From the NCBI GenBank assembly GCA_041658665.1, contig JBAZZR010000003.1, forward strand, positions 4,125 to 68,124: 64,000 nucleotides of DNA, read 5' to 3'. The first letter of the stretch is position 1, and the number at the start of each line of letters is the position of its first letter. Below the pieces are notes generated by a model that did not search any database, was not told where the DNA came from, and worked only from the letters and a program-made list of their open reading frames with translations. The DNA comes from Patescibacteria group bacterium. GTDB lineage: Bacteria; Patescibacteriota; Patescibacteriia; Patescibacteriales; UBA12465. Shown here piece after piece: positions 1 through 9,588 of the stretch. Both the position numbers and the translations under genes were made by a program.

Positions 1-393
1 GGCGTAAAAGTCGGATATTACAGCCAAGATTTTTCTACTTTAAATTTCGAAGAAATAGTTTTTGATTCCTTAAAAAATATAGCAGACGGTTTAGACGAAC
101 CGGAAATACGTTCCATCGCCGCCGGTTTTCTAATCGCGGGCGATTTAATGGGGCATAAAATAGCTGATTTATCAGAGGGACAAAAAGGCTTGCTATCTTT
201 TGCTCACTTAGTCTTAAAACGACCGGGACTTCTAATTTTAGACGAACCGACCAACCATATTAATTTCCGCCATCTCCCGATTCTGGCTCAAGCCATTAAT
301 AATTACGCTGGAGCAATTATTATGGTTAGCCACATGCCGGAATTCGTGGAAAAAATCCGCTTTACCGAAGAGTTAGATTTAGGCAAGTTTTAA
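1..393 (+). CDS. ABC-F type ATPase, C-terminal fragment (5' end outside window)
   Basis: Frame 1 is open from nt 1 (GVKVGYYSQDF...) and runs into the listed 148..393 ORF. Signature-like LSEGQK, Walker B LLILDEPTNH and H-loop MVSH are present. No TM segment. Confidence 0.75.
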   Translation, partial: GVKVGYYSQDFSTLNFEEIVFDSLKNIADGLDEPEIRSIAAGFLIAGDLMGHKIADLSEGQKGLLSFAHLVLKRPGLLILDEPTNHINFRHLPILAQAINNYAGAIIMVSHMPEFVEKIRFTEELDLGKF

Positions 394-402
394 TTTTTTT
401 TT

Positions 403-1776
403 ATGACCAATCATCCGAAACTTACTCATTCGACAAATCATAATAACGCCCAAGAAGCCCCGCAAAAATTTTCTGATTTAGGTATCAGTGAATCAATTTT
501 AGAAATTTTAAAAAAACTTAATTTAGATATTCCCACCCCCATTCAGCGCAAAACCATTCCTATTGCTATCGCTGGTCAAGATTTAATTGGCGTCGCACAA
601 ACGGGAACCGGAAAGACTTTTGCTTTTGGCATTCCGATGCTCCAGCGTTTAGGCGCCACCAAGAAACAAGGATTAATTATTGCTCCGACTCGCGAGCTTG
701 CCTTACAAGTTGAAGAAAGTTTAAAAAAACTCGGCCAAGCTTTAGGGCTAAGAACGGCGCTTTTAATCGGCGGCGAAGCTTTAGACCGCCAACTTTTTTC
801 TCTTCGCAAAAGACCGCATATTATCGTCGCCACTCCCGGACGACTGATCGACCACCTTAAACGCCGAACTTTTAAATTAGATCAAATTAATACCCTAGTG
901 TTGGATGAGGCGGATATGATGCTGGACTTAGGTTTTGCCCCGCAAATTCAAGAAATTCTAAAACAGGCGCCGCCCGAGCGTCAAACTATGCTATTTTCGG
1001 CTACCATGCCAGCGGCAATCGTTAAAATCGCCGCTAATTACATGAAATTACCAGTCAGTATTGAGGTAGCGCCGTCAGGCACGACCGCTTCTCAAGTTGA
1101 TCAAGAAATATTCATTATTAAAGGTGAAGAACGTTTTGAGCATCTCCAGAAAGTTCTTAGCCATTACGCTGGCTCGGTTCTCGTCTTTGTTCGAACTAAG
1201 CACGGCGTTAAAGCTCTAACGCTTAAACTGTGCTCGCTGGGTCATAGAGCGGTAGAGATTCATTCCAACCTATCTTTAAGCCGTCGACGCGCCGCCTTGA
1301 ATGACTTTAAGTCTAAAAAAGAGCGTATTCTAGTAGCCACTGATGTGGCCGCGCGTGGCCTAGATATTAATGCGATTGAATTAGTAGTTAACTATAATTT
1401 ACCAGATAATTCTGAGGATTATGTTCATCGAATCGGCCGAACCGGACGAGCGGGACAAGTAGGCAAAGCGATTACCTTCGCGACCTCTAACGAACAAAAA
1501 GAAATTTACGCTATTGAAAAATTGATTAATAAAAATATTAAACGAACCGAATTTGTAAAATTTTCTAGAGAATCATCCCTCGCGCCAACCAACCAAAAAA
1601 ATAAAAAATCATTTAGAGGAAACCCAAGAGGAAACCGACGTCATAATTTCAGCGGTGCGAGTGCTCCTGCGACTGCGCCGACCGCCGACCGCCGTCAGCC
1701 TGGTTTTTCAGGAAGAACGGGGAAGTATAAACAGTCTTCGCCCCGAAAATTTTCCCGCCGAACTTTTTCTCGGTAA
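403..1776 (+). CDS. DEAD-box ATP-dependent RNA helicase with basic R/G/S-rich C-terminal tail
   Basis: Q-motif PTPIQ, Walker A AQTGTGKT, LDEADMML (DEAD), SAT, ARGLD and HRIGRTGR motifs, all in canonical order. Confidence 0.9.
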   Translation: MTNHPKLTHSTNHNNAQEAPQKFSDLGISESILEILKKLNLDIPTPIQRKTIPIAIAGQDLIGVAQTGTGKTFAFGIPMLQRLGATKKQGLIIAPTRELALQVEESLKKLGQALGLRTALLIGGEALDRQLFSLRKRPHIIVATPGRLIDHLKRRTFKLDQINTLVLDEADMMLDLGFAPQIQEILKQAPPERQTMLFSATMPAAIVKIAANYMKLPVSIEVAPSGTTASQVDQEIFIIKGEERFEHLQKVLSHYAGSVLVFVRTKHGVKALTLKLCSLGHRAVEIHSNLSLSRRRAALNDFKSKKERILVATDVAARGLDINAIELVVNYNLPDNSEDYVHRIGRTGRAGQVGKAITFATSNEQKEIYAIEKLINKNIKRTEFVKFSRESSLAPTNQKNKKSFRGNPRGNRRHNFSGASAPATAPTADRRQPGFSGRTGKYKQSSPRKFSRRTFSR

Positions 1777-2029
1777 CAATTCACTCTTGCGCCAAGCTTA
1801 ATTATATATTAAAATCAGTAAAGAAATAAGAGAATACTAGTTATTTTAAAAATCATCCTCAAAACCCTATCAAGGGATATTAGCAATTATTTTTTGAACT
1901 TAAGCTTACTTCGTTAATATCGATTTATTTTCGAAAAATAGTAGAGGAGACCCGGATGGATCTCCTCATTGGATTTAACTCATATTTAGTCCGTAACGAA
2001 TTAAATATCTTGGGGGTGATTTTTAAAAT
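1777..2029 (+). other. 253-nt gene-free leader upstream of the reverse transcriptase (possible structured RNA)
   Basis: No ORF in the track. There is a 7-bp hairpin (gaggaga 1944-1950 / tctcctc 1961-1967, 10-nt loop) and flanking complementary heptamers (ttcgtta 1910-1916 / taacgaa 1994-2000). A near-consensus SD gggggtga (2012-2019) lies 10 nt before the ATG at 2030. Confidence 0.3.
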
Positions 2030-3235
2030 ATGTTTAGTAGAATAATAAGTTATCAGAATATCGAGGCGGCTTATTTAGAAATAATTGAGCAATTCGCGGC
2101 CGACCGACGTAATTTTAGATATCACGGCCTAGATAATATTTTTTTGCACGATCTCGACCTAAAATCTCAAGCAATAATTAAAATTATTCAAACCGACCTC
2201 CAAAAAATTAAAGAAATTGAACCGGCTCTCGCCGTACAAATTCCTAAAAAAAATAAACCGGAGCAATATCGAGAAATTTTTATTTATAACCTTAAGGAGA
2301 GAATAAAGGCGCAAGCTATTTATCGCGTAATCTTACCAATCTTTGAAAATAATTTTTCTGACCGACTTTTTTCTTATCGTCCCGGGAAACCTCCTTATTT
2401 AGCGGCACAGAGCTTTTGTCGTCGCTACCGTCGGGAATTCTCCAAAGATCAGGCTCTCATAATAGATTTAAAAAACTACTCTGATCGGATAAATCGAACG
2501 CTGATGTTTCAGCAGCTGCAAAAAATTATTAGTGACCAAAAAGTTTTAGCGCTTCTCCGTTTATTTATTTTTAATAAAGTCTATCGCCAAGGAAAATACA
2601 CTGATCCCGCCCAGGGACTAGTGCAGGGCGTCCCTTTAATCGCTCTTCTCGCTAACTTATATTTAACGGACTTAGATTTTAAATATCAAACTAAGTCCGC
2701 TTTTTATGTACGGGTTGGCGATGATTTGGCTTTTTTAGATCCCGCTCTCGATAAACTCCAAAAAATACTAGCGACCCTCGCCAACGATTTAACGGCCCGG
2801 GGACTAGAACTTAACCAACAAAAATTATTTTTAGGCGCGGCTCGCGACCAATATTCTTTTTTAGGCTATAATTTCAAAGCCGGACTTATTAGTTTAGAGC
2901 CGGTATTTATTAAAAGGACGATCGCCGACTGGCAAAGAATTTTGACTTATAAAAACGCGCCGCCTGACGCCAAATTAAATTTACTAAGCCGAATAATGAG
3001 CAAGCCAGAAAATAATTTTAACCGACAATTTCAAAAAATAGTAAAAGACAAGTCCCAAATTAATAATTCGGCGCAAATTAAAAAAATATCGGAAAATTTC
3101 TTTGCCATTTTAACTAAGTTTATTTACAAACATTACTCGCCAAGAAATCGCCGGTTATTAGAAGAGAAATTAAAAAATATAAAAATAATGTCTTTATACA
3201 GTATATATAAAAAATTCCATTATGATCGAAATTAA
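2030..3235 (+). CDS. Free-standing reverse transcriptase (RT palm/fingers plus about 120-aa helical C-terminal region)
   Basis: RT motifs in order: IPKKNKPEQYREI (1-2), FSYRPGKPPYLA (3), LIIDLKNYSDRI (4), GLVQGVPLIALLANLYL (5), YVRVGDDLAF (motif C, VGDD at 2714-2725), GLELNQQK (6), FLGYNF (7). No maturase X, endonuclease, DGR SQ or retron VTG motif seen. Confidence 0.85.
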   Translation: MFSRIISYQNIEAAYLEIIEQFAADRRNFRYHGLDNIFLHDLDLKSQAIIKIIQTDLQKIKEIEPALAVQIPKKNKPEQYREIFIYNLKERIKAQAIYRVILPIFENNFSDRLFSYRPGKPPYLAAQSFCRRYRREFSKDQALIIDLKNYSDRINRTLMFQQLQKIISDQKVLALLRLFIFNKVYRQGKYTDPAQGLVQGVPLIALLANLYLTDLDFKYQTKSAFYVRVGDDLAFLDPALDKLQKILATLANDLTARGLELNQQKLFLGAARDQYSFLGYNFKAGLISLEPVFIKRTIADWQRILTYKNAPPDAKLNLLSRIMSKPENNFNRQFQKIVKDKSQINNSAQIKKISENFFAILTKFIYKHYSPRNRRLLEEKLKNIKIMSLYSIYKKFHYDRN

Positions 3236-4940
3236 GGAACAAGTGCGGCTGTTAAAAAAAATTAGAATCAATCGTCATAAACAAGCGACAACCGCCAACT
3301 CGGTCTTACAGTATAATTATTTACTAATGTTTTTTAAAAAACATCAACTAATTATACTAGGCACTATCCTCCTTTTACTAACCCAAGGGATTATTGAAAC
3401 ATCTCTAGTTTTTATTAGTAAAAACCAACTAACTTTTAGCAGCCCAAACATAACTAGTTCTTTTTTTTGGTGGTTATTTATCACTTTTTTCCTTATTTTT
3501 CTGGTTAATTCCTTTGTCGCCATTAGACAGGAAAAGACCGTAGTCGTTCTTTTTATTAATAGTCTTCGCCGACGAATTTTTAAAAATTATCTTGGTAAAT
3601 CATTAAACGGCATGAAAGCAGAGGCCCAAGCCGCTTTAATCGCTAAAATTTCCTACCACCTACCTCTAGTATCCCTAGGCATATCCAATTCATTATTTGG
3701 CTTTATTCGCTGGCTAATCTATTTAACTTCCGCCGTGGTCGTCGCTTCTTTCGCTGGTTTAAATATCTTAGTTATTTTAATAAGCTTTTTATTATTGTCG
3801 ATTATGATCGCCGTCCCCGCCTACTTTATCGCTCAACGCTATATTTCTCAAGAAGTTACTTTCTACTCTCAAATTATTAAATTAATTGATTTAAGCGCCT
3901 CGGAAAAATATTTTCTCAAAAGTTTTAATTTAGAAACAACCACCCTAAAAAAATTCGATCGCCTAGTAGATTTTGACTCTATTTTTCGAATTCGACGAGA
4001 TTTATGGATGAAAATGGGCTTTAAAATAGTCTTCGCTCTTCTTCTGATTATCTCTGTTTTAATTCATCTTTTTCAAAATAATATTACGGCCACTATTAAT
4101 TTAATAAGTCCGGAATTAAAATTTCTCTACGCCTTTCTTCTAATTTATTTATCGCGGGTCGCGACGGAAGCCCTCCGCATCGGTCTTTACTTTTTTCCTG
4201 GTCAATTAGGGTTATCCCTCACTATTACTCCCCAAGGAAAATATCTTCATCGGGCTAACCGCGTCGATATTAAAAAAGAGATTACTTTCTATAGCCGCAA
4301 AATTAAATTATTTAAAACCGGTCGTTATTATCGAAAATTAAGTTTTGACTTTTTAAGAGGCGGCCGCTATCTATTTTATGGTGCTAATCTTTCGGGCAAA
4401 ACCACCTTGGCTAAATTATTCTGGGGTAGCGAGGCTTACCAGTCTAAAGCACTAAAAATAAAAATAGACGGCCACCGTCTAAATTTTTCCGACTATCAGC
4501 GCTTATTTAATAGAGGCTATTTTTTCCAACCCAATTTTTATTCACAAAAAAGCTTGCTAGAATTAATTCTTGGTTTAGACCGAGAAGCCACTGATTTTTC
4601 AGAAATTGACCGCGCTTTAAAAATTATCGCCGCCTATCCATCGTTAGTAGAACTGGTCTCAACTGATAATAACTTTAGCTTAGCGGCCGATAAAATCTGG
4701 AACAACCCCGCAGCAGCCTTTGCCCTACATTCTTTACACTGTCTGGTCAACCGCCCCTCCCTCATTATTATTGATAATCTCTGGCTAGACCTAAATTATC
4801 CCGCTATCAATAAAATACTAAAAATCATCAGCCAAGAACTGCCCGAAGTAATTTTAATTATTTTCGCTAGCCAGGATATTAATCATTTAACTTATAACAA
4901 CCGCTATGACTTGGATAAAAATTTTGAGACAAAAGACTAA
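3222..4940 (+). CDS. ABC exporter-like membrane protein (6 predicted TM helices plus nucleotide-binding domain with degenerate catalytic motifs)
   Basis: Start overlaps the RT stop by 14 nt. Six hydrophobic helices lie in the N-terminal about 330 aa. Walker A GANLSGKT (4380-4403) is intact. The signature is replaced by FSLAA. Walker B reads LIIIDN (Asp 4773-4775, then Asn instead of the catalytic Glu). No H-loop His is seen in IIFASQD. Confidence 0.7.
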   Translation: MIEIKEQVRLLKKIRINRHKQATTANSVLQYNYLLMFFKKHQLIILGTILLLLTQGIIETSLVFISKNQLTFSSPNITSSFFWWLFITFFLIFLVNSFVAIRQEKTVVVLFINSLRRRIFKNYLGKSLNGMKAEAQAALIAKISYHLPLVSLGISNSLFGFIRWLIYLTSAVVVASFAGLNILVILISFLLLSIMIAVPAYFIAQRYISQEVTFYSQIIKLIDLSASEKYFLKSFNLETTTLKKFDRLVDFDSIFRIRRDLWMKMGFKIVFALLLIISVLIHLFQNNITATINLISPELKFLYAFLLIYLSRVATEALRIGLYFFPGQLGLSLTITPQGKYLHRANRVDIKKEITFYSRKIKLFKTGRYYRKLSFDFLRGGRYLFYGANLSGKTTLAKLFWGSEAYQSKALKIKIDGHRLNFSDYQRLFNRGYFFQPNFYSQKSLLELILGLDREATDFSEIDRALKIIAAYPSLVELVSTDNNFSLAADKIWNNPAAAFALHSLHCLVNRPSLIIIDNLWLDLNYPAINKILKIISQELPEVILIIFASQDINHLTYNNRYDLDKNFETKD

Positions 4941-6120
4941 AAAGGGGGATGGCCGTAATTGGCTAGCCCTACTTATTTTTTTCGGACTACCCCTAGTGTT
5001 ACTCATCGGCGGTTTATCTTTAGGCGTAAAATTCTTGCCTTTCTACCAAAAAGCAAAAAATATAATTTTAGAACCGGCCCAAATAATAGAAATTAGCGAA
5101 CCATTTTCTGGTAATTTATATTTTAATGATGAACTCGGCATAGATAACTTTTCCAGCCTAATTATTGCTAACCTCGATACCGCTAAATATAAAATTGAGC
5201 TAGCTATGTATTCCATGGATAGCGCGACTATTGCCGACGCTCTCTATCGCGCCGCCGATCGAGGCGTACTAATTAACTTAATTTTTAGTGATAAACACCA
5301 AGCAATAATTAATAAATTATTTAAAAATCCTCATCAAAATATTACAATTAATTTCCGTAGTTCTGATTTAGGATATATGCATCACAAATTTCTCTTAATT
5401 GATCGCCAGACAACCGCCCCTAAACTATTTTTTAGTTCTTATAATTTCACGAATATCCAAGGGAAATATGATCCTAGTTTTATTTTAGAGACTAGCCGGC
5501 CGGAGTTAGTGGATATTTTTGGACAAGAGTTTGGACGTTTAGCCGCAGGCCAACACGGCGAAGCAAAAAAAGCGACGACTAGTAATCCCTTCGCTGCTCT
5601 AATAAAGTACCCCGAGGGTTTTCTAGAAATTTGGTTCTCGCCGGGAACGGCTCAAAAAAACGTTAAACGCCGTATGTTAAATTTAATTAAAGACTCAAAA
5701 AGTAATATCAAAGTCATGATCTGGACTTTGACCGATAAAGAGATCGCCGCGGCCTTAGTCGCCGCCGCCCAAAAATTACCAGTTAATATTATTACTGATG
5801 ATTCTAATTGGTCGGTGGACAATTCTGTTTTTCCGATTTTAGCGGCGCAGAAAGAAAGACAAAATTTAAATAATCTAGAAATAATTACCGACAGTAAAAA
5901 TAGTGAAGGAATAAATAAACTATATACCGGCAATAGTCTTAATTCGTTCTTGCATCATCATCTGATGATTATTGATGACCAAACCGTGATTTTTGGCACT
6001 AATAATTGGAGCTACAACGGTTTTTCAAAAAACAATGAATCAATCATGATTTCTAATATAGCAAGCCTCACTAGCGCTTTTGAACAATCATACTCAACTA
6101 ACTATAATAAAAATAAATAA
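4906..6120 (+). CDS. Membrane-anchored phospholipase D (HKD) superfamily protein
   Basis: Start overlaps the upstream stop by 35 nt. A basic N-terminus is followed by one TM helix (WLALLIFFGLPLVLLIGGLSLGV). First motif is HHKFLLID (HxKxxxxD, 5380-5403) followed by SSYNFT. Second motif is HHHLMIID (HxHxxxxD, 5953-5976) followed by GTNNWS. Confidence 0.8.
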   Translation: MTWIKILRQKTKKGDGRNWLALLIFFGLPLVLLIGGLSLGVKFLPFYQKAKNIILEPAQIIEISEPFSGNLYFNDELGIDNFSSLIIANLDTAKYKIELAMYSMDSATIADALYRAADRGVLINLIFSDKHQAIINKLFKNPHQNITINFRSSDLGYMHHKFLLIDRQTTAPKLFFSSYNFTNIQGKYDPSFILETSRPELVDIFGQEFGRLAAGQHGEAKKATTSNPFAALIKYPEGFLEIWFSPGTAQKNVKRRMLNLIKDSKSNIKVMIWTLTDKEIAAALVAAAQKLPVNIITDDSNWSVDNSVFPILAAQKERQNLNNLEIITDSKNSEGINKLYTGNSLNSFLHHHLMIIDDQTVIFGTNNWSYNGFSKNNESIMISNIASLTSAFEQSYSTNYNKNK

Positions 6121-6270
6121 TTTGACTATTCTTATATCTTTAATTTGAAGAAAACAGCCTAAATACGCGTAATAATCAGGCCAGGATTAATAAAATCACC
6201 GATTAAACAGGAATAATTATAAATAAAATTTATTATTTATCTTATTTTTGTGCTATTATATTAAGATAAT

Positions 6271-7401
6271 ATGCCAAAATACCAATATATAATCGAAAAT
6301 AACGATACCCGTCCGGATCAGACTCTCATAATAACGCTTAAGCCCAAGACCAATAAAGATATCTTTAATTTTCAGCCCGGTCAATATGCGATGTTATCTT
6401 TTTATGACAAGGCCGGTAAATTTTTCATCAATCATCCTTTTTCTATCGCCAGTTCACCGACGCAAAAAAATTATTTAAAATTTGGCATAAAAATAATCGG
6501 CCAATTTACACAAAATTTAAAGAATCTCGCTCCTGGGAATAAGGTCGAAGTTTTAGGTCCTTTCGGTAATTTTATTTTTGATGAAACTAAATATCCCGTT
6601 GCCGTATTTATAGCAGGCGGGGTAGGAATAACGCCATTTATGAGCGCTATTAATTACGCGACTGATCGAAACTTGTCCAACCAAATATTCTTATTATATA
6701 GTAACCGGACTATTGCCGGCACTCTTTTTTATGAGGAGATTAAAAAATTAGCCGCTCAAAATCCTCATTTTCATCCTCAACTAAAAATTACTCAAGAACC
6801 AATTAATAATCTTAGTTATTGTGAAAACGGCTATATCACTAAAGAAACAATCACGAAAAATATTCAAGAGCTAGATCATAAAGATTTTTTCCTTTGCGGA
6901 CCGGGACAGTTTATGAAAACGATGGAAAAAAATTTAATTGAACTGGGTGTCCCTAACCACAAAATTCATCAAGAAGCTTTTAATGCTACTCCGAACCTAT
7001 CCCTACGAGAAAATGCTAAAAATATCTCCCTAGTTTACGGCCTGACAGTTGTCTTATTTATTTTTTTTCTAAACTTTATTCAACCCGCTAAAATTAGTTC
7101 GGCAAACGAGTCGGCTAAAATTTTCGAGCCAGCTCCAATTAATCTGATTAACAATGCCGTAAATAATCGGCGCAATGACATTATCAGCTCTAAAAAGTTA
7201 TTGCTTAGCACTATTAGCTCTCTCCTGACTAAAAATATAAATACCAATACTAAACCTACCGCTGGATCAGCGCCAATAACTCAGCCCGCTAAAACTAATC
7301 CCGCGCCCATTATTCAACCCGTTAAAATAGCGACACCAATTATTAAGACCCCGGCTCAAAATCGCGCTCCCGTCGTAACGCCAAGAACTAGGGTCTCTTA
7401 A
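6271..7401 (+). CDS. NOX/ferric-reductase-type FAD/NAD(P)H-binding dehydrogenase domain protein with C-terminal TM helix and P/T/A-rich tail
   Basis: FAD motif HPFSIASSP (from 6433), NAD(P)-binding GGVGITPF and FLCGPG motif. A hydrophobic helix (LVYGLTVVLFIFFLNFI) is followed by a proline/threonine/alanine-rich tail. Confidence 0.7.
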   Translation: MPKYQYIIENNDTRPDQTLIITLKPKTNKDIFNFQPGQYAMLSFYDKAGKFFINHPFSIASSPTQKNYLKFGIKIIGQFTQNLKNLAPGNKVEVLGPFGNFIFDETKYPVAVFIAGGVGITPFMSAINYATDRNLSNQIFLLYSNRTIAGTLFYEEIKKLAAQNPHFHPQLKITQEPINNLSYCENGYITKETITKNIQELDHKDFFLCGPGQFMKTMEKNLIELGVPNHKIHQEAFNATPNLSLRENAKNISLVYGLTVVLFIFFLNFIQPAKISSANESAKIFEPAPINLINNAVNNRRNDIISSKKLLLSTISSLLTKNINTNTKPTAGSAPITQPAKTNPAPIIQPVKIATPIIKTPAQNRAPVVTPRTRVS

Positions 7402-7414
7402 TTATTAAAATATT

Positions 7415-7801
7415 ATGAAAAAAATTAAAAAAATATCAACTTCATTATTACTAATTTTTTTATTCGCGCTGACGAGTCAGCCGATATTAGCTGAAGATGA
7501 TGACTATGACGATTACGAAGAAAATAATTACAGAGAAAATAATGACGATCGGCCAGAAGTAATTTCCGCCGTTGAGGAGACCTCGGCCCCGGTAACACCA
7601 CGAGTATCGACGATTGATGCCCCCGCCGCGACTGGCTTTCTGCCCACAGTAAACATTACTAATAGTTTAATTGATTCCGATCAAGACGGAATCATTGATA
7701 TTTTAGATACTCATCCCGGTGAGGACGACTTTGCCTTTAGGATTCAAGACGCTAATAAAAATGGCCTGATTGATGATTTAGAATATTTAATGAACAAATA
7801 A
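7415..7801 (+). CDS. Small secreted acidic protein with a pair of EF-hand/dockerin-like Ca-binding loops
   Basis: Signal peptide MKKIKKISTSLLLIFLFALTSQPILA, an acidic D/E/Y run, then two 12-residue loops (DSDQDGIIDILD and DANKNGLIDDLE) matching DxDxDGxIxxxD/E. Confidence 0.55.
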   Translation: MKKIKKISTSLLLIFLFALTSQPILAEDDDYDDYEENNYRENNDDRPEVISAVEETSAPVTPRVSTIDAPAATGFLPTVNITNSLIDSDQDGIIDILDTHPGEDDFAFRIQDANKNGLIDDLEYLMNK

Positions 7802-7807
7802 TCTAAT

Positions 7808-8749
7808 ATGCAGGCCTATAAAAAAATCCAGGCTCTGGGCACCGAAGTAGAATTTTATTTACAATCTGATTTAAAAATTGACTTAGAGCCAGATTTTTTA
7901 GAACTCAGCCTCTTAATTGATAAATTTGATCAACTATTTAACCGTTTTTCGGCGAGTAGCGAACTAAGTCGATTAAATAAAGCTACAAATAATTTCCAGG
8001 CTAACCCCGAATTAACTAAAATTCTACTAGTAGCCAAAGACTTTTATAATTTAACGGGCGGAATCTTTGACCCTACTATTTTACGAACTTTAGAAGAGCA
8101 GGGATATGACCGAAGCTTTGATTCTTTAGATTTAGGTGGTTCTAACGAACTAATAGAACGCCGACCAAAAACGATTGATTTTAAACAAATAATAATTAAC
8201 GCCGAGAACAATTTTATTACCAAGCCCCCCGAGCTTAAAATAGATTTAGGGGGAATCGGTAAAGGGTATATCGTTGATAAACTCGTTAAACATCTAAAGG
8301 ACAAAGGATATAAAAATTTTTGGATTTCGGCTGGCGGAGACATGTATCTCAGTGGTTTAACGGCCGACGGACAAACTTATCAAATCGGCGTTCAAAACCC
8401 CTTAAAAATCGCTAGCGATTTATTTAATATCGCAATGACGGCTCAAGAGCTGGCGGTCGCCACTTCAGGAATCGCGAAAAGACAATGGTCGGATAAACAC
8501 GGCCACCGCTTTAATCATTTAATTGATCCGCGAACCAGATCTTCGGTAAATAATGGTCTGCTCGCCGCGACGGTTATTTCTGATCAAGTAGTGAAGGCGG
8601 ATATTTATGCTAAAACAATCTTAATTTTAGGAGAAAAAGAGGGAATTAGTTTCATTGACCAGCAAGAAAATAGCGAAGCTCTCATTATCGATCGGAATTT
8701 AAAAGTTAGTTTGTCAAAAAATATGAATAAATATTTAACAAAAATCTAA
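7808..8749 (+). CDS. apbE: FAD:protein FMN transferase (ApbE family)
   Basis: ApbE-like motifs FDPT, DLGGIGKGY, ISAGGD, VATSGI and HLIDPRT. About 310 aa, typical of the family. Confidence 0.8.
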   Translation: MQAYKKIQALGTEVEFYLQSDLKIDLEPDFLELSLLIDKFDQLFNRFSASSELSRLNKATNNFQANPELTKILLVAKDFYNLTGGIFDPTILRTLEEQGYDRSFDSLDLGGSNELIERRPKTIDFKQIIINAENNFITKPPELKIDLGGIGKGYIVDKLVKHLKDKGYKNFWISAGGDMYLSGLTADGQTYQIGVQNPLKIASDLFNIAMTAQELAVATSGIAKRQWSDKHGHRFNHLIDPRTRSSVNNGLLAATVISDQVVKADIYAKTILILGEKEGISFIDQQENSEALIIDRNLKVSLSKNMNKYLTKI

Positions 8750-9588
8750 TGTTTAAAACTAATAAATTATTGATCGTGACGATCACCTTAATTTTCTTCA
8801 GTAATTTTTTCTTACCGGCGACTCTACTAGCGGAAAATGTCATTTATGCTACCTCGGCTAAAGACAGTGATTACGACGGCTTAACTGATCAGGGTGAAAT
8901 TCAAATTTATAAAACAAATCCACAAAATCCCGATTCTGATAGTGACTCCTATTTAGACGGCGCCGAAATTTTAGCCGGCACTAATCCTTTAGATCCAAAC
9001 AGCCCCCAAATAGTCTCCACCACCGATCTTAATTTAAGTAAGACTAGCGTTCCGGCGACTAGTCTTTGGCCTTGGTTCGTGGCGCGTGCTTCTGGTATAG
9101 TTAGCTACCTTCTCCTTTTTTTACTAATAGTTTCTGGTAGCGGCATAAAAACTTCATCATTATTTCGTTTAGTGAGTCCAACGACGGCTTGGTTAAATCA
9201 CCGCTATTTAGGAATCGCTTTGACATTTTCGACGTTGATTCATTTGGGCTCACTTTTGACTGATAATTTTTTAAAATTTACTGTTATTGATATCCTAGTC
9301 CCCTTCATTTCTAGTTTTAAACCTTTATATTTATCGCTAGGCATCATCGGTTTTTATCTGTTTTTAGCCATAATTATTTTCTCGATCTTTTATATGAATA
9401 AACTCCCTAAAATCTGGCGCGTGCTTCATTATTTAACCTATCCCGCCTTTATTATCCTCTTCATTCATGGCTATTTTATCGGTACCGACACAACGACAAA
9501 TTTAATGCAGTTAATCTATCTGACCACGGGGATTATAGTCGCCTTACAATTTTCTTATCGTCTATATTTTTCCTATAAACAACACTAA
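8749..9588 (+). CDS. Ferric-reductase-like (NOX/MsrQ superfamily) di-heme transmembrane domain protein with N-terminal extracellular thrombospondin-type-3-like Ca-binding repeats
   Basis: The ATG shares one nt with the apbE stop (taATG). Signal/anchor, then DSDYDGLTDQGE and NPDSDSDSYLDGAEILAGTNPLDPNS. TM helices carry His pairs spaced 14 residues (His codons at 9199 and 9241) and 13 residues (9427 and 9466). Confidence 0.7.
   Translation: MFKTNKLLIVTITLIFFSNFFLPATLLAENVIYATSAKDSDYDGLTDQGEIQIYKTNPQNPDSDSDSYLDGAEILAGTNPLDPNSPQIVSTTDLNLSKTSVPATSLWPWFVARASGIVSYLLLFLLIVSGSGIKTSSLFRLVSPTTAWLNHRYLGIALTFSTLIHLGSLLTDNFLKFTVIDILVPFISSFKPLYLSLGIIGFYLFLAIIIFSIFYMNKLPKIWRVLHYLTYPAFIILFIHGYFIGTDTTTNLMQLIYLTTGIIVALQFSYRLYFSYKQH

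Follow-up and report, generated by a model that had tools for sequence, protein, structure and literature searches.

Three open reading frames are chained on the forward strand of the window, i.e. the 64,000-nt stretch of Patescibacteria DNA that was analyzed and to which all positions refer. They encode a predicted reverse transcriptase (RT) of 401 amino acids (positions 2030–3235), an ABC exporter-like protein of 572 aa (3222–4940) and a phospholipase D (PLD) family protein of 404 aa (4906–6120). The coordinates given in the initial annotation are confirmed, as are the overlaps of 14 nt between the RT and ABC-like frames and of 35 nt between the ABC-like and PLD frames. The overlaps are conserved among relatives. 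Neither the ATG at 3222 nor that at 4906 has a purine-rich Shine-Dalgarno (SD) sequence upstream, as had been observed before; the second and third frames are thus SD-less. The 253 nt preceding the RT gene (1777–2029) are gene-free, however they are not the plain SD-bearing 5′ untranslated region they were taken for, but hold a conserved pseudoknotted RNA. It is very probable that the structured RNA, the RT, the ABC-like protein and the PLD protein form a real four-part module that is novel in composition.

The covariance model termed R1 matches positions 1832–2032 of the forward strand with 168.6 bits (E = 1e-29). The functional core of the RNA, about 190 nt in length (~1842–2030), is directly 5′ of the RT start codon. 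The model has only one copy in the genome, and matches of the RNA to the rest of the genome are short, AT-rich and of a chance kind. The fold has a z-score of −4.5. In an alignment of 40 sequences, compensatory changes are found at 41 of the 43 base pairs, and 92.5% of cells are paired. Every helix, and the pseudoknot too, is backed by covariation.

The RNA is closed by a stem, P1, which is a 21-nt inverted repeat whose arms are 90% complementary and in which 13 of 13 modelled pairs show covariation. The 5′ arm (1842–1862) is anti-SD-like and ends with ...ATCATCCTCAA. It pairs with the 3′ arm (2010–2030), which contains GGGGGTGA and ends at the RT ATG. The near-consensus gggggtga at 2012–2019, initially read as a simple leader SD, is therefore 3′ arm sequence of the closing stem. 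Since the SD is within this arm and the arm extends to the ATG, folding of the RNA must occlude translation of the RT and, by coupling, of the whole operon. Sequestration of the SD by P1 is equally expected of a purely cis-regulatory leader.

Between the arms of P1, the strand ATATTA (1877–1882) pairs with the conserved loop TAATAT (1915–1920) of a long hairpin, P3 (1886–1942), whose helices 3–5 all covary. The resulting pseudoknot of 6 bp is paired in 99.6% of cells and covaries at 6 of 6 pairs; the alignment was made with a model that did not include this pairing. P3 is followed by a GC-rich hairpin (1944–1967) in a region that varies from about 20 to about 150 nt across loci and that differs between tandem RNA copies of one locus. 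A conserved single-stranded motif, CCTCATTGGATTTAA (1964–1978), comes after it and leads to the P5 hairpin (1982–2008), where helix 7 has compensatory changes in 10 of 11 pairs.

Searches with model R1 and, beyond it, with an nhmmer profile find the RNA ahead of the RT in 51 of 67 loci, and a like layout is seen by eye in three more divergent loci. It is found only with this RT family, and its divergence parallels that of the RT clades. The RNA can also stand as a unit of its own. At locus L025 it has its own terminator and is separated from the RT by about 2 kb with two pilin genes, at locus L014 there is an extra tandem copy with its own terminator, and in the subclade L054/56/57/60 a terminator-like hairpin is located between the RNA and the RT ATG.

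The identification of the first frame as an RT is upheld by an RVT_1 match (64 bits) and by the catalytic residues D146 and D231/D232, which are invariant in relatives. The RVGDD active site and the steric-gate Tyr150 are conserved in the family. The best sequence matches are NCBIfam group_II_RT_mat (126 bits) and the GsI-IIC RT (109 bits), with RT-Cas1 also among the best. The AF2 model (pLDDT 91.8) has the GsI-IIC group II RT as its best fold match in Foldseek, with a TM score of 0.75–0.76 over 407–424 columns that takes in the whole 401 aa. Superposition on this enzyme shows that what was described as an extra helical tail is an ordinary thumb/X domain. The earlier view that maturase and endonuclease domains are both missing is correct for the endonuclease domain, and there is no Pfam GIIM sequence match, however at the level of the fold it is wrong for the maturase domain, as the thumb/X region superposes on that of the GsI-IIC RT. 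Absence of the retron VTG motif is as annotated. By its conserved residues the RT is predicted to be a DNA polymerase of the group-II-intron-like kind that is catalytically intact and has no intron RNA.

The ABC-like protein was annotated as a six-helix exporter fold that keeps only Walker A. The fold is that of a full-length type-I ABC exporter: profile matches cover both the transmembrane domain (TMD) and the nucleotide-binding domain (NBD) of a half-transporter with a six-helix TMD, and the AF2 model (pLDDT 84, pTM 0.76) has full-length Foldseek matches (E ~1e-14) to MsbA, TmrAB, TM287/288, PglK and HlyB. The restriction to Walker A does not hold. The Lys of Walker A, GxxxxGK[TS], is kept in 48 of 56 family members and the Walker B Asp518 in all 56. 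Asn519 replaces the catalytic Glu in 51 and Asp the Q-loop Gln in 40 of the 56, and neither the signature motif nor the H-loop His was found in the family (n = 56). The most conserved residues are charged and are located in the cytoplasmic helical extensions. From these motifs the protein may still bind nucleotide, with the hydrolysis machinery lost. The NBDs may not dimerize on ATP at all, since catalytic Glu, signature motif and H-loop are missing. The ABC-like proteins thus represent a whole half-transporter family that would have evolved away from ATP hydrolysis.

Complex prediction of the RT with the ABC-like protein gives an ipSAE of 0.37, versus 0.00 for the best control; at least 94% of contacts recur between the runs, and the partner has a pLDDT of 81. 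Of 80 solved complexes 58 reach the pass mark for such scores, as do 2 of 110 mismatched pairs, and passes at a score of 0.60 or below comprise only 7 of the 80 solved complexes together with both passing mismatches. The model gives a faint indication that the RT may dock on the ABC-like protein.

The third frame has the predicted N-terminal transmembrane helix and two PLDc_2 lobes, however not the two HKD motifs ascribed to it. In lobe 1 the residues H, K, D and N of the motif HxK(x)4D(x)6G[ST]xN are conserved in all members that align there (53–54 of 55), whereas in lobe 2 all 55 have H in place of K, the motif being HxH(x)4D(x)6GTxN. The lobes match Zucchini/PLD6 (68 bits), NucT (64 bits) and Nuc (62 bits); further matches are NCBIfam NucT (71 bits) and PADLOC DrmC (67 bits, one model, partial), and the match to cardiolipin synthase has an E-value of only 0.005. 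Structural look-alikes are secreted PLDs, some of which are fused to SNase. The expectation that the PLD domain faces outward agrees with a charge bias (N-in) in 49 of 55 homologues, i.e. with the predicted topology. Going by sequence, the protein appears to be a fused Nuc/Zucchini-type pseudo-dimer behind an N-in signal anchor, and its nearest relatives are nucleases, not lipid enzymes.

The gene order RT, ABC-like, PLD is present in 59 of the 59 loci fetched for relatives of the RT and in seven loci of the genus, with RT identities of 34%–94% and unrelated flanking sequences. A still more distant trio is found at locus L097. The pairwise identities of the three proteins correlate (Spearman 0.84–0.87, 53 loci), so that the proteins co-diverge, and the ABC-PLD pair is never seen without an RT among true family members. 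The initial annotation had proposed a membrane-associated RT module, and the trio is indeed obligately linked. Of the two findings that it named as refuting the proposal, a group II intron remnant with intron domains nearby and an ABC-PLD pair conserved without the RT, neither was made. That the parts are always inherited together suggests a reverse transcriptase wired to the cell envelope.

The module family is rare and limited to a few Patescibacteria lineages. The module is present in 13 of 41 related genomes and is patchy within the genus. Single genomes of 1 Mb can contain two or three divergent copies, usually one per deep RT clade. In the nearest relative the ABC-like gene has a nonsense codon. 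The patchy, multi-copy distribution in variable contexts is typical of, and compatible with, accessory or defence modules.

Neighbors at the locus are DEAD-box helicase, FNR-like, ApbE and MFS genes. Flanking genes are of the housekeeping, pilin and redox type rather than defence genes, and among 139 flanking open reading frames there is no enrichment of defence genes, integrases or transposases. No conserved fourth protein gene is found downstream, where rubrerythrin, RNase HII and a sigma factor are among the neighbors. The DEAD helicase upstream belongs to the core genes, and what follows it differs in every relative fetched; a comparison with empty sites does not delimit the element. There are no convincing bounding repeats around the module. 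Integration next to tRNA genes was considered as a general rule and rejected, as a tRNA is within 1 kb at few loci only. Carriage by phages was likewise rejected: 2.9 million IMG/VR contigs gave one match, to a contig that looks cellular, with a giant upstream open reading frame in a context as in L054. Fusions of RT with ABC or of ABC with PLD longer than 1001 aa were not found, which counts as weak evidence.

The best explanation is that the locus is a self-contained, retroelement-derived module of four parts: a structured RNA, an RT, an ABC-like membrane protein and a PLD that is predicted to be a surface nuclease. As to its role, the reading we prefer, at a probability of roughly 0.4, is by analogy a retron/DRT-like sensor of RT and non-coding RNA (ncRNA) with a membrane effector pair, forming an anti-phage or abortive-infection-type system of Patescibacteria. 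The RNA would be the cognate scaffold or template of the RT, as in retrons and in DRT2/9/10. P1 would throttle RT translation and, via translational coupling, that of the two genes downstream that lack an SD. The particle of RT and RNA, alone or together with a cDNA product, would dock on the cytoplasmic face of an ABC-like dimer. This dimer would be a ligand-gated transducer or pore, not a pump, and would relay the RT-RNA/cDNA state to the extracytoplasmic PLD hydrolase. The membrane-associated RT module suggested at the outset is retained here, whereas the anti-phage part stays tentative given that the 139 flanking genes show no enrichment for defence islands or mobile elements. In addition, an outward-facing nuclease would be an odd abortive-infection effector because phage and host DNA in the cytoplasm are out of its reach.

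A rather unlikely alternative is export or surface processing of nucleic acid, where the RT copies part of the RNA to cDNA at the membrane, the ABC-like protein is a conduit, perhaps nucleotide-gated, and the surface PLD trims the product or sets it free. What is produced could be DNA or RNA outside the cell, used by an epibiont for attachment, matrix, signalling or host manipulation. The exporter fold is the only transmembrane link between the cytoplasmic polymerase and the outward-predicted PLD. The nuclease affinities of the PLD, its secreted look-alikes (including those with SNase fusions), the conserved charges of the cytoplasmic extensions and the weak RT-ABC contact are also in line with export. 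However, no ABC exporters that move nucleic acid are known, an obvious energy source is lacking because the NBD, by its motif loss, cannot hydrolyze ATP, and a distribution that is patchy and multi-copy is more in keeping with an accessory or defence role than with a physiological one.

The ABC-PLD pair may instead be an envelope scavenging system, which we consider improbable, in which a surface nuclease or phospholipase, together with a protein that handles lipids or nucleotides, nourishes an ultra-small auxotrophic cell. The RNA would then be purely a cis leader, either riboswitch-like or an RT-autoregulated translational operator comparable to domain IVa of group II introns, which is bound by the protein of the intron itself, and the RT a domesticated RNA-binding regulator or chaperone. 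The SD in the P1 3′ arm that ends at the ATG is as this predicts, the lipid flippases MsbA and PglK are among the closest structural matches of the ABC-like model, and the neighbors are housekeeping, pilin and redox genes, not defence genes. Against this, the RNA is restricted to this RT family and diverges along with its clades, and there are terminated solo or displaced copies from which the RNA cannot reach the RT SD in cis. A mere RNA binder would have no need for the strict conservation seen in both the polymerase active site and the steric gate. Rarity and patchiness are also unexpected for a core nutritional function.

It is quite unlikely that the locus is an RT-driven envelope machine in which the dedicated RNA gives rise to cDNA or an RNA-cDNA hybrid, an ABC-exporter-derived channel that no longer burns ATP senses this product or lets it pass, and it is then handled outside by a tethered Nuc/Zucchini-type nuclease. 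If true, this would be the first RT system with an output that acts at or beyond the cell surface, and it would be in episymbiotic ultra-small bacteria.

A decayed or unusual mobile group II intron, or another retroelement with cargo genes and residual intron RNA as leader, is very improbable: the RT is nearest to group II intron RTs in sequence and fold, the genomic context varies and some genomes have several copies, however an Rfam scan of positions 1–9000 (E ≤ 1) detects no group II families or intron RNA domains and speaks against an intron remnant, the ~190 nt upstream are far too short for domains I–III, the next frame overlaps the RT stop and thus leaves no room for domains V/VI downstream, as had been argued initially, an endonuclease domain, bounding repeats and nearby integrases or transposases are absent, and where one genome has several copies, these are divergent and of old date rather than recently inserted.

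Prokaryotic RTs outside mobile introns have shown surprising chemistry, e.g. msDNA, de novo genes, homopolymers and telomere-like repeats, and the tools known to us that derive from such RTs depend on cognate RNA. The locus presents a new RT-RNA pair of a group-II-like lineage, whose pseudoknotted fold is defined well enough for biochemistry. We know of no earlier case in which an RT is obligately linked with both a protein of ABC-exporter fold and a predicted extracytoplasmic nuclease. The coupling raises the question of whether RT products signal or travel across the membrane. The module is also a candidate for an accessory or immune system of the Patescibacteria, a group with a poorly known defence repertoire.

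The initial statement that the composition matches no described type is borne out. PADLOC gives only generic RT matches and weak or partial DrmC-like ones, so that a known defence system was rejected, and full-text searches of the published literature found no description of an RT-ABC-PLD cassette.

The module RT is nearest to group II RTs in sequence and fold, without intron RNA. Its 126 bits are below the 300-bit cut-off for a group II RT/maturase, and the D/En domain is absent. G2L RTs are operationally defined as group II-like RTs without intron RNA (PMC8632793). By its best matches and the absence of intron RNA, the module RT would classify as G2L; G2L4 is distant (37 bits). Neither a dedicated pseudoknotted RNA nor two obligate membrane partners, as here, are described for G2L RTs in PMC8632793 and PMC8934634.

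The module resembles retrons in that a structured RNA closed by a long inverted repeat is directly upstream of the RT, with conserved 5′ elements followed by a variable hairpin region, and in that effector genes are downstream in the operon. Unlike retron RTs, the module RT is outside the retron clade (26 bits with the Ec86 RT versus 109 bits with the group II RT), and retron RT models are absent among its best 25 PADLOC matches. The conserved branching G that follows the 5′ arm in retrons is also absent in the module RNA, where the conserved junction is A-rich. To our knowledge the ABC-like and PLD effector pair is absent from the known retron types (Mestre 2020 classification).

DRT2, DRT9 and DRT10/UG17 share with the module a free-standing RT that is preceded by an ncRNA. 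The top fold matches of the module RT include DRT9, and PADLOC has RT_UG26 as second-best match (110 bits), with UG17 at 84 bits. Unlike a UG26 RT, the module RT matches the model only at positions 46–289 of 398 and not over its full length. Its score is about half that of the UG26-like RT beside a distant ABC-like relative at locus L095, which matches near full length (202 bits, positions 52–395). The DRTs as described are single-gene or cytoplasmic systems, none with an ABC-exporter-fold protein and a PLD, and the words "ABC" and "phospholipase" do not occur in PMC9226505. The DISARM system differs in that its DrmA/DrmB and methylase partners are absent from the locus, and only the partial DrmC match is found.

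Among ABC proteins, exporters with non-catalytic NBDs, mechanotransmitters such as FtsEX and the ATP-gated channel CFTR may be compared. The ABC-like protein shares the full six-helix TMD and NBD fold with type-I exporters, however all hydrolysis motifs but Walker A and the Walker B Asp are lost family-wide. The pairing of its gene with that of a predicted extracytoplasmic hydrolase is analogous to FtsEX and its hydrolases, although FtsEX differs in its ABC fold and has an active ATPase. We know of no ABC protein with an RT partner.

The module PLD differs from the single-HKD nucleases in that one chain holds two fused lobes, the second of which invariantly has HxH instead of HxK, and in that the domain is predicted to be outside. 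Each lobe nevertheless matches Nuc, NucT and Zucchini at 62–68 bits, and Zucchini is likewise tethered by an N-terminal helix.

The window comes from a genome of 1.03 Mb in 6 contigs, a size typical of Patescibacteria. The three chained open reading frames of the initial annotation are found on the plus strand and encode a reverse transcriptase (RT, positions 2030–3235), an ABC-like protein (3222–4940) and a PLD protein (4906–6120), with overlaps of 14 nt (RT/ABC-like) and 35 nt (ABC-like/PLD). Inspection of the upstream sequences bears out that no purine-rich SD precedes the ATG of the second or third gene. On the 5′ side are the end of an ordinary ABC ATPase gene and a DEAD-box helicase, and on the 3′ side is an FNR-like/ApbE/ferric-reductase cluster. 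The GC content of the cassette (0.28–0.40) is near that of its surroundings (0.29–0.45). The 3′ cluster (6271–9588) comprises an FNR-like flavoprotein, an unannotated 128-aa open reading frame, an ApbE flavin transferase and a ferric-reductase-type membrane protein with TSP3 repeats. These genes resemble a set for extracytoplasmic flavin or electron transfer, here in a very small genome, and display no linkage to the cassette in other genomes.

Among 24 genomes of the same genus that were searched, 8 have the RT; across all relatives the figure is 13 of 41. Each of the seven other loci of the genus has the ABC-like and PLD genes after the RT, within flanks that differ. A wider scan, limited to a single genome for each species, yielded 59 loci, which carry the labels Falkowbacteria, Magasanikbacteria, "Parcubacteria" and other Patescibacteria, several of these labels being implausible. 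The gene order RT, ABC-like, PLD is present in 59/59, the genes sharing a strand as far as the contig permits, with RT identities from 94% down to 34%. Overlapping reading frames are usual (RT/ABC-like mostly 14 or 26 nt, ABC-like/PLD 11–77 nt). Pairwise identities of the three proteins are correlated (Spearman 0.84–0.87, 53 loci, the pairs not being independent). Two deep clades divide the RT tree, and genomes with two cassettes usually hold one of each.

An exhaustive search of 1.84 billion representatives with the ABC-like family profile gave only 92 clusters at E ≤ 1e-30, beyond which scores fall sharply to generic exporters. In a census of 36,145 genera, ABC-like members with at least 20% of the best possible score were seen only in Patescibacteriota and one Omnitrophota-labelled bin, and an RT lies within 3 kb in 3/3 of this band tested. 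A more distant member (97 bits), at locus L097 (JGI 3300033182), is again within the trio. A widespread ABC-PLD pair lacking the RT, which the initial annotation had regarded as evidence against the trio, did not emerge from the profile search and census. The RT-ABC-PLD trio is an obligate module. The RT-ABC pairing itself may be broader than the cassette family, since 6 of 117 weak ABC matches in the genus census have an RT within 3 kb, versus 0 at random places. In a Logan contig (SRR22388048, L095:1709–4905), an ABC-like protein distantly related to the family (99 bits against its profile) is tail-to-tail with a UG26-like RT that matches PADLOC RT_UG26 near full length at 202 bits; PLD is absent from this 5.3-kb contig.

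Many cassette-bearing MAGs (L023, L025, L029, L033–L038 and others) are in records titled "uncultured Gammaproteobacteria", and there is one Flavobacteriaceae and one Omnitrophota title. These are probably labelling or binning artefacts, since the RTs nest among Patescibacteria copies. The sole IMG/VR contig with the RT (L080, IMGVR_UViG_3300001866_000229) also has the structured RNA described below (5742–5989) and an upstream 1405-aa open reading frame, like cellular loci of the L054 type, and probably derives from a cell despite being filed as viral.

The RT scores 64 bits against RVT_1 and 126 bits against group II RT/maturase, which is under the cut-off of 300. PADLOC profiles give generic RT 132, UG26 110 (a partial match) and RT-Cas1 100 bits. 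By sequence, the solved structures matched are GsI-IIC RT (109 bits), Cas6-RT-Cas1 (103), LtrA (61), DRT9 (49), DRT2 (46), G2L4 (37) and retron Ec86 (26). The AF2 model (pLDDT 91.8) superposes over its full length on GsI-IIC RT (TM 0.76), followed by G2L4 and DRT9 as structural matches. On this superposition the C-terminal helices, taken earlier as an extra helical tail, are the thumb/X domain; the absence of an endonuclease domain, also noted earlier, holds in the full-length model. Conservation is complete or almost so at D146, at the steric-gate Y150 and at R228/G230/D231/D232 (RVGDD), which points to an active DNA polymerase.

The ABC-like profile matches span both the TMD and NBD of type-I exporters. 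Foldseek matches of the AF2 model (pLDDT 84) are MsbA, TmrAB, TM287/288, PglK, HlyB and PCAT1 at 13–16% identity. The 6-TM exporter fold of the initial annotation therefore stands, with the correction that Walker A is not the only motif kept: Walker B Asp518 is also invariant across 56 members. In Walker A, most members retain the Gly/Lys/Thr (Lys in 48/56). The catalytic Glu is replaced by Asn in 51/56 and the Q-loop Gln by Asp in 40/56, and LSGGQ and the H-loop His are absent from the 56 members compared. From these residues the protein may still bind nucleotide and is not built for hydrolysis. In the nearest relative (G003, 94% identity, L013:5426–7144) the gene has an in-frame stop, Q136* (CAA to TAG), so that either the gene is a pseudogene or the assembly is wrong here; the leader in that assembly contains a run of N.

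The PLD protein comprises a pair of PLDc_2 lobes (115 bits) and resembles NucT (71 bits); its family profile matches Zucchini/PLD6 at 68, NucT at 64 and Nuc at 62 bits. Motif 1 is HxK, and catalytic residues are kept in all aligned members. The anchored, two-lobed architecture first proposed is thus sound, and the second motif is not HKD: it is HxH in 55/55. An N-terminal hydrophobic helix is present in every homologue, flanked on average by 5.2 K/R on its N side versus 2.4 on its C side (N > C in 49/55). The positive-inside rule predicts that the catalytic domain lies outside the cell, in agreement with the initial annotation. Among its structural look-alikes in the ESM Atlas are secreted PLDs and PLDs fused to SNase. 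A subclade of ~490 aa (L050, L063, L066, L071–L075) has a C-terminal extension of ~85 aa with no Pfam match.

The 253 nt before the RT gene had been read as a plain gene-free leader with a near-consensus SD, gggggtga, at 2012–2019. This segment folds far better than shuffled sequences (z = −4.5) and contains a conserved structured RNA, in which the presumed SD is part of the 3′ arm of the closing stem. An alignment of 20 leaders gives a consensus of the closing stem P1 (1842–1862 with 2010–2030), a small hairpin P2, a long hairpin P3, a length-variable hairpin region, a conserved single-stranded motif (CCTCATTGG-ATTTAA) and a hairpin P5. Searched with the covariance model from this alignment, the window yields a single copy (1832–2032, 168.6 bits) and the rest of the genome none; the model also finds copies directly 5′ of the RT in many non-seed loci. 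The layout is retained in relatives of unrelated primary sequence. Among 40 aligned matches, 92.5% of cells pair versus ~40% with slid partners, and 41 of 43 pairs show compensatory changes, the alignment being fitted to the model. An H-type pseudoknot joins 1877–1882, the six bases after P2, with the P3 loop (1915–1920). Its pairing is absent from the covariance model and thus provides an independent check: it is paired in 99.6% of cells with covariation in 6/6 pairs, e.g. ATATTA/TAATAT versus ATGCCG/CGGCAT versus GCATTA/TAATGC. A sequence profile detects the RNA in 51/67 loci; the divergent L046, L072 and L073, which it misses, display the same layout by eye. The L097 leader is unmatched by the RNA model. 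It has a near-perfect inverted repeat of ~60 bp around ~100 nt (L097:2480–2800; MFE −138 kcal/mol, z = −17.5) ending ~75 nt before the RT start, possibly an alternative closing stem of far greater length, or else a palindrome unrelated to it.

The P1 partner of the SD arm (1842–1862) resembles an anti-SD. Judged from sequence, folding must therefore occlude RT translation and, as the second and third genes lack their own SDs, probably limits the whole operon. Positions 5311–5343, within the PLD gene, are 71% like the P1 5′ arm (1836–1866) and 79% complementary to the 3′ arm (2004–2027); this may be chance, the DNA being AT-rich.

Three observations indicate that the RNA is more than a cis leader. 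In L025 it has its own terminator and is separated by two pilin-like genes from a leaderless RT. Second copies are found in tandem in L014/L021, L015/L078, L045 and L051, and partially in L031, with variable regions unlike those of the first copy; after the additional L014 copy come three codons of the RT, then a stop and a terminator. The subclade L054/56/57/60 has a GC hairpin and T-run between P1 and the ATG. By analogy with retrons and DRT2/9/10, this is the pattern expected of a discrete partner RNA; an additional autoregulatory role is possible. The inserted L025 pair (L025:2794–5000) encodes type-IV-pilin-like proteins with an N-terminal methylation motif. Similar open reading frames are also upstream, and N_methyl proteins occur in 5/139 flanking open reading frames.

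The predicted anatomy is a cytoplasmic RT with its RNA, an engineless transmembrane exporter fold and a hydrolase on the outside, so that either some substance or a conformational state would cross the ABC-like protein. We favour a sensor-effector reading, at a probability of about 0.4. RT-RNA, perhaps with cDNA, would be bound at the cytoplasmic face of the ABC-like dimer, and perturbation would switch the dimer, acting as a gate or mechanotransmitter to the PLD. Co-folding of the ABC-like protein with the RT gives an ipSAE of 0.37 (best control 0.00), where the mark was reached by 58/80 solved complexes and 2/110 mismatched pairs, and where scores ≤0.60 include only 7 of those 80 complexes, yet both mismatches. 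At least 94% of contacts agree among runs, with a partner pLDDT of 81. The models lend weak support to this contact. A role in conflict or defence is favoured by a signature of accessory genes: patchy presence, 2–3 divergent copies in genomes of 1 Mb, variable context and the nonsense allele Q136*, if not an assembly error. Against defence, the flanking genes of the loci are not enriched for defence functions or mobile elements, and a nuclease outside the cell is unusual as a suicide effector.

Export of cDNA or nucleic acid with processing at the surface would suit the exporter fold and outward PLD, less so the altered catalytic residues, and is unlikely. We give equally little credence to an envelope system for scavenging in which the RNA acts purely as a cis regulator and the RT is regulatory; the P1-embedded SD would agree with it, the displaced and tandem RNAs would not. 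A decayed mobile intron is very improbable. Together with the favoured reading, these rivals leave roughly a quarter of the probability unassigned.

Operationally the RT is of the G2L type, i.e. group II-like without an intron. Our literature search found no description of an RT that is accompanied by this RNA or by ABC-like and PLD proteins. The module is alike in logic to a retron or an ncRNA-dependent DRT (a defence-associated RT) and is a member of neither, since its RT is outside the retron clade and matches UG26 only partially. We rate it as belonging among the RT + RNA + effector cassettes, where an architecture that spans the membrane could turn out to be categorically new should export or transduction be borne out.
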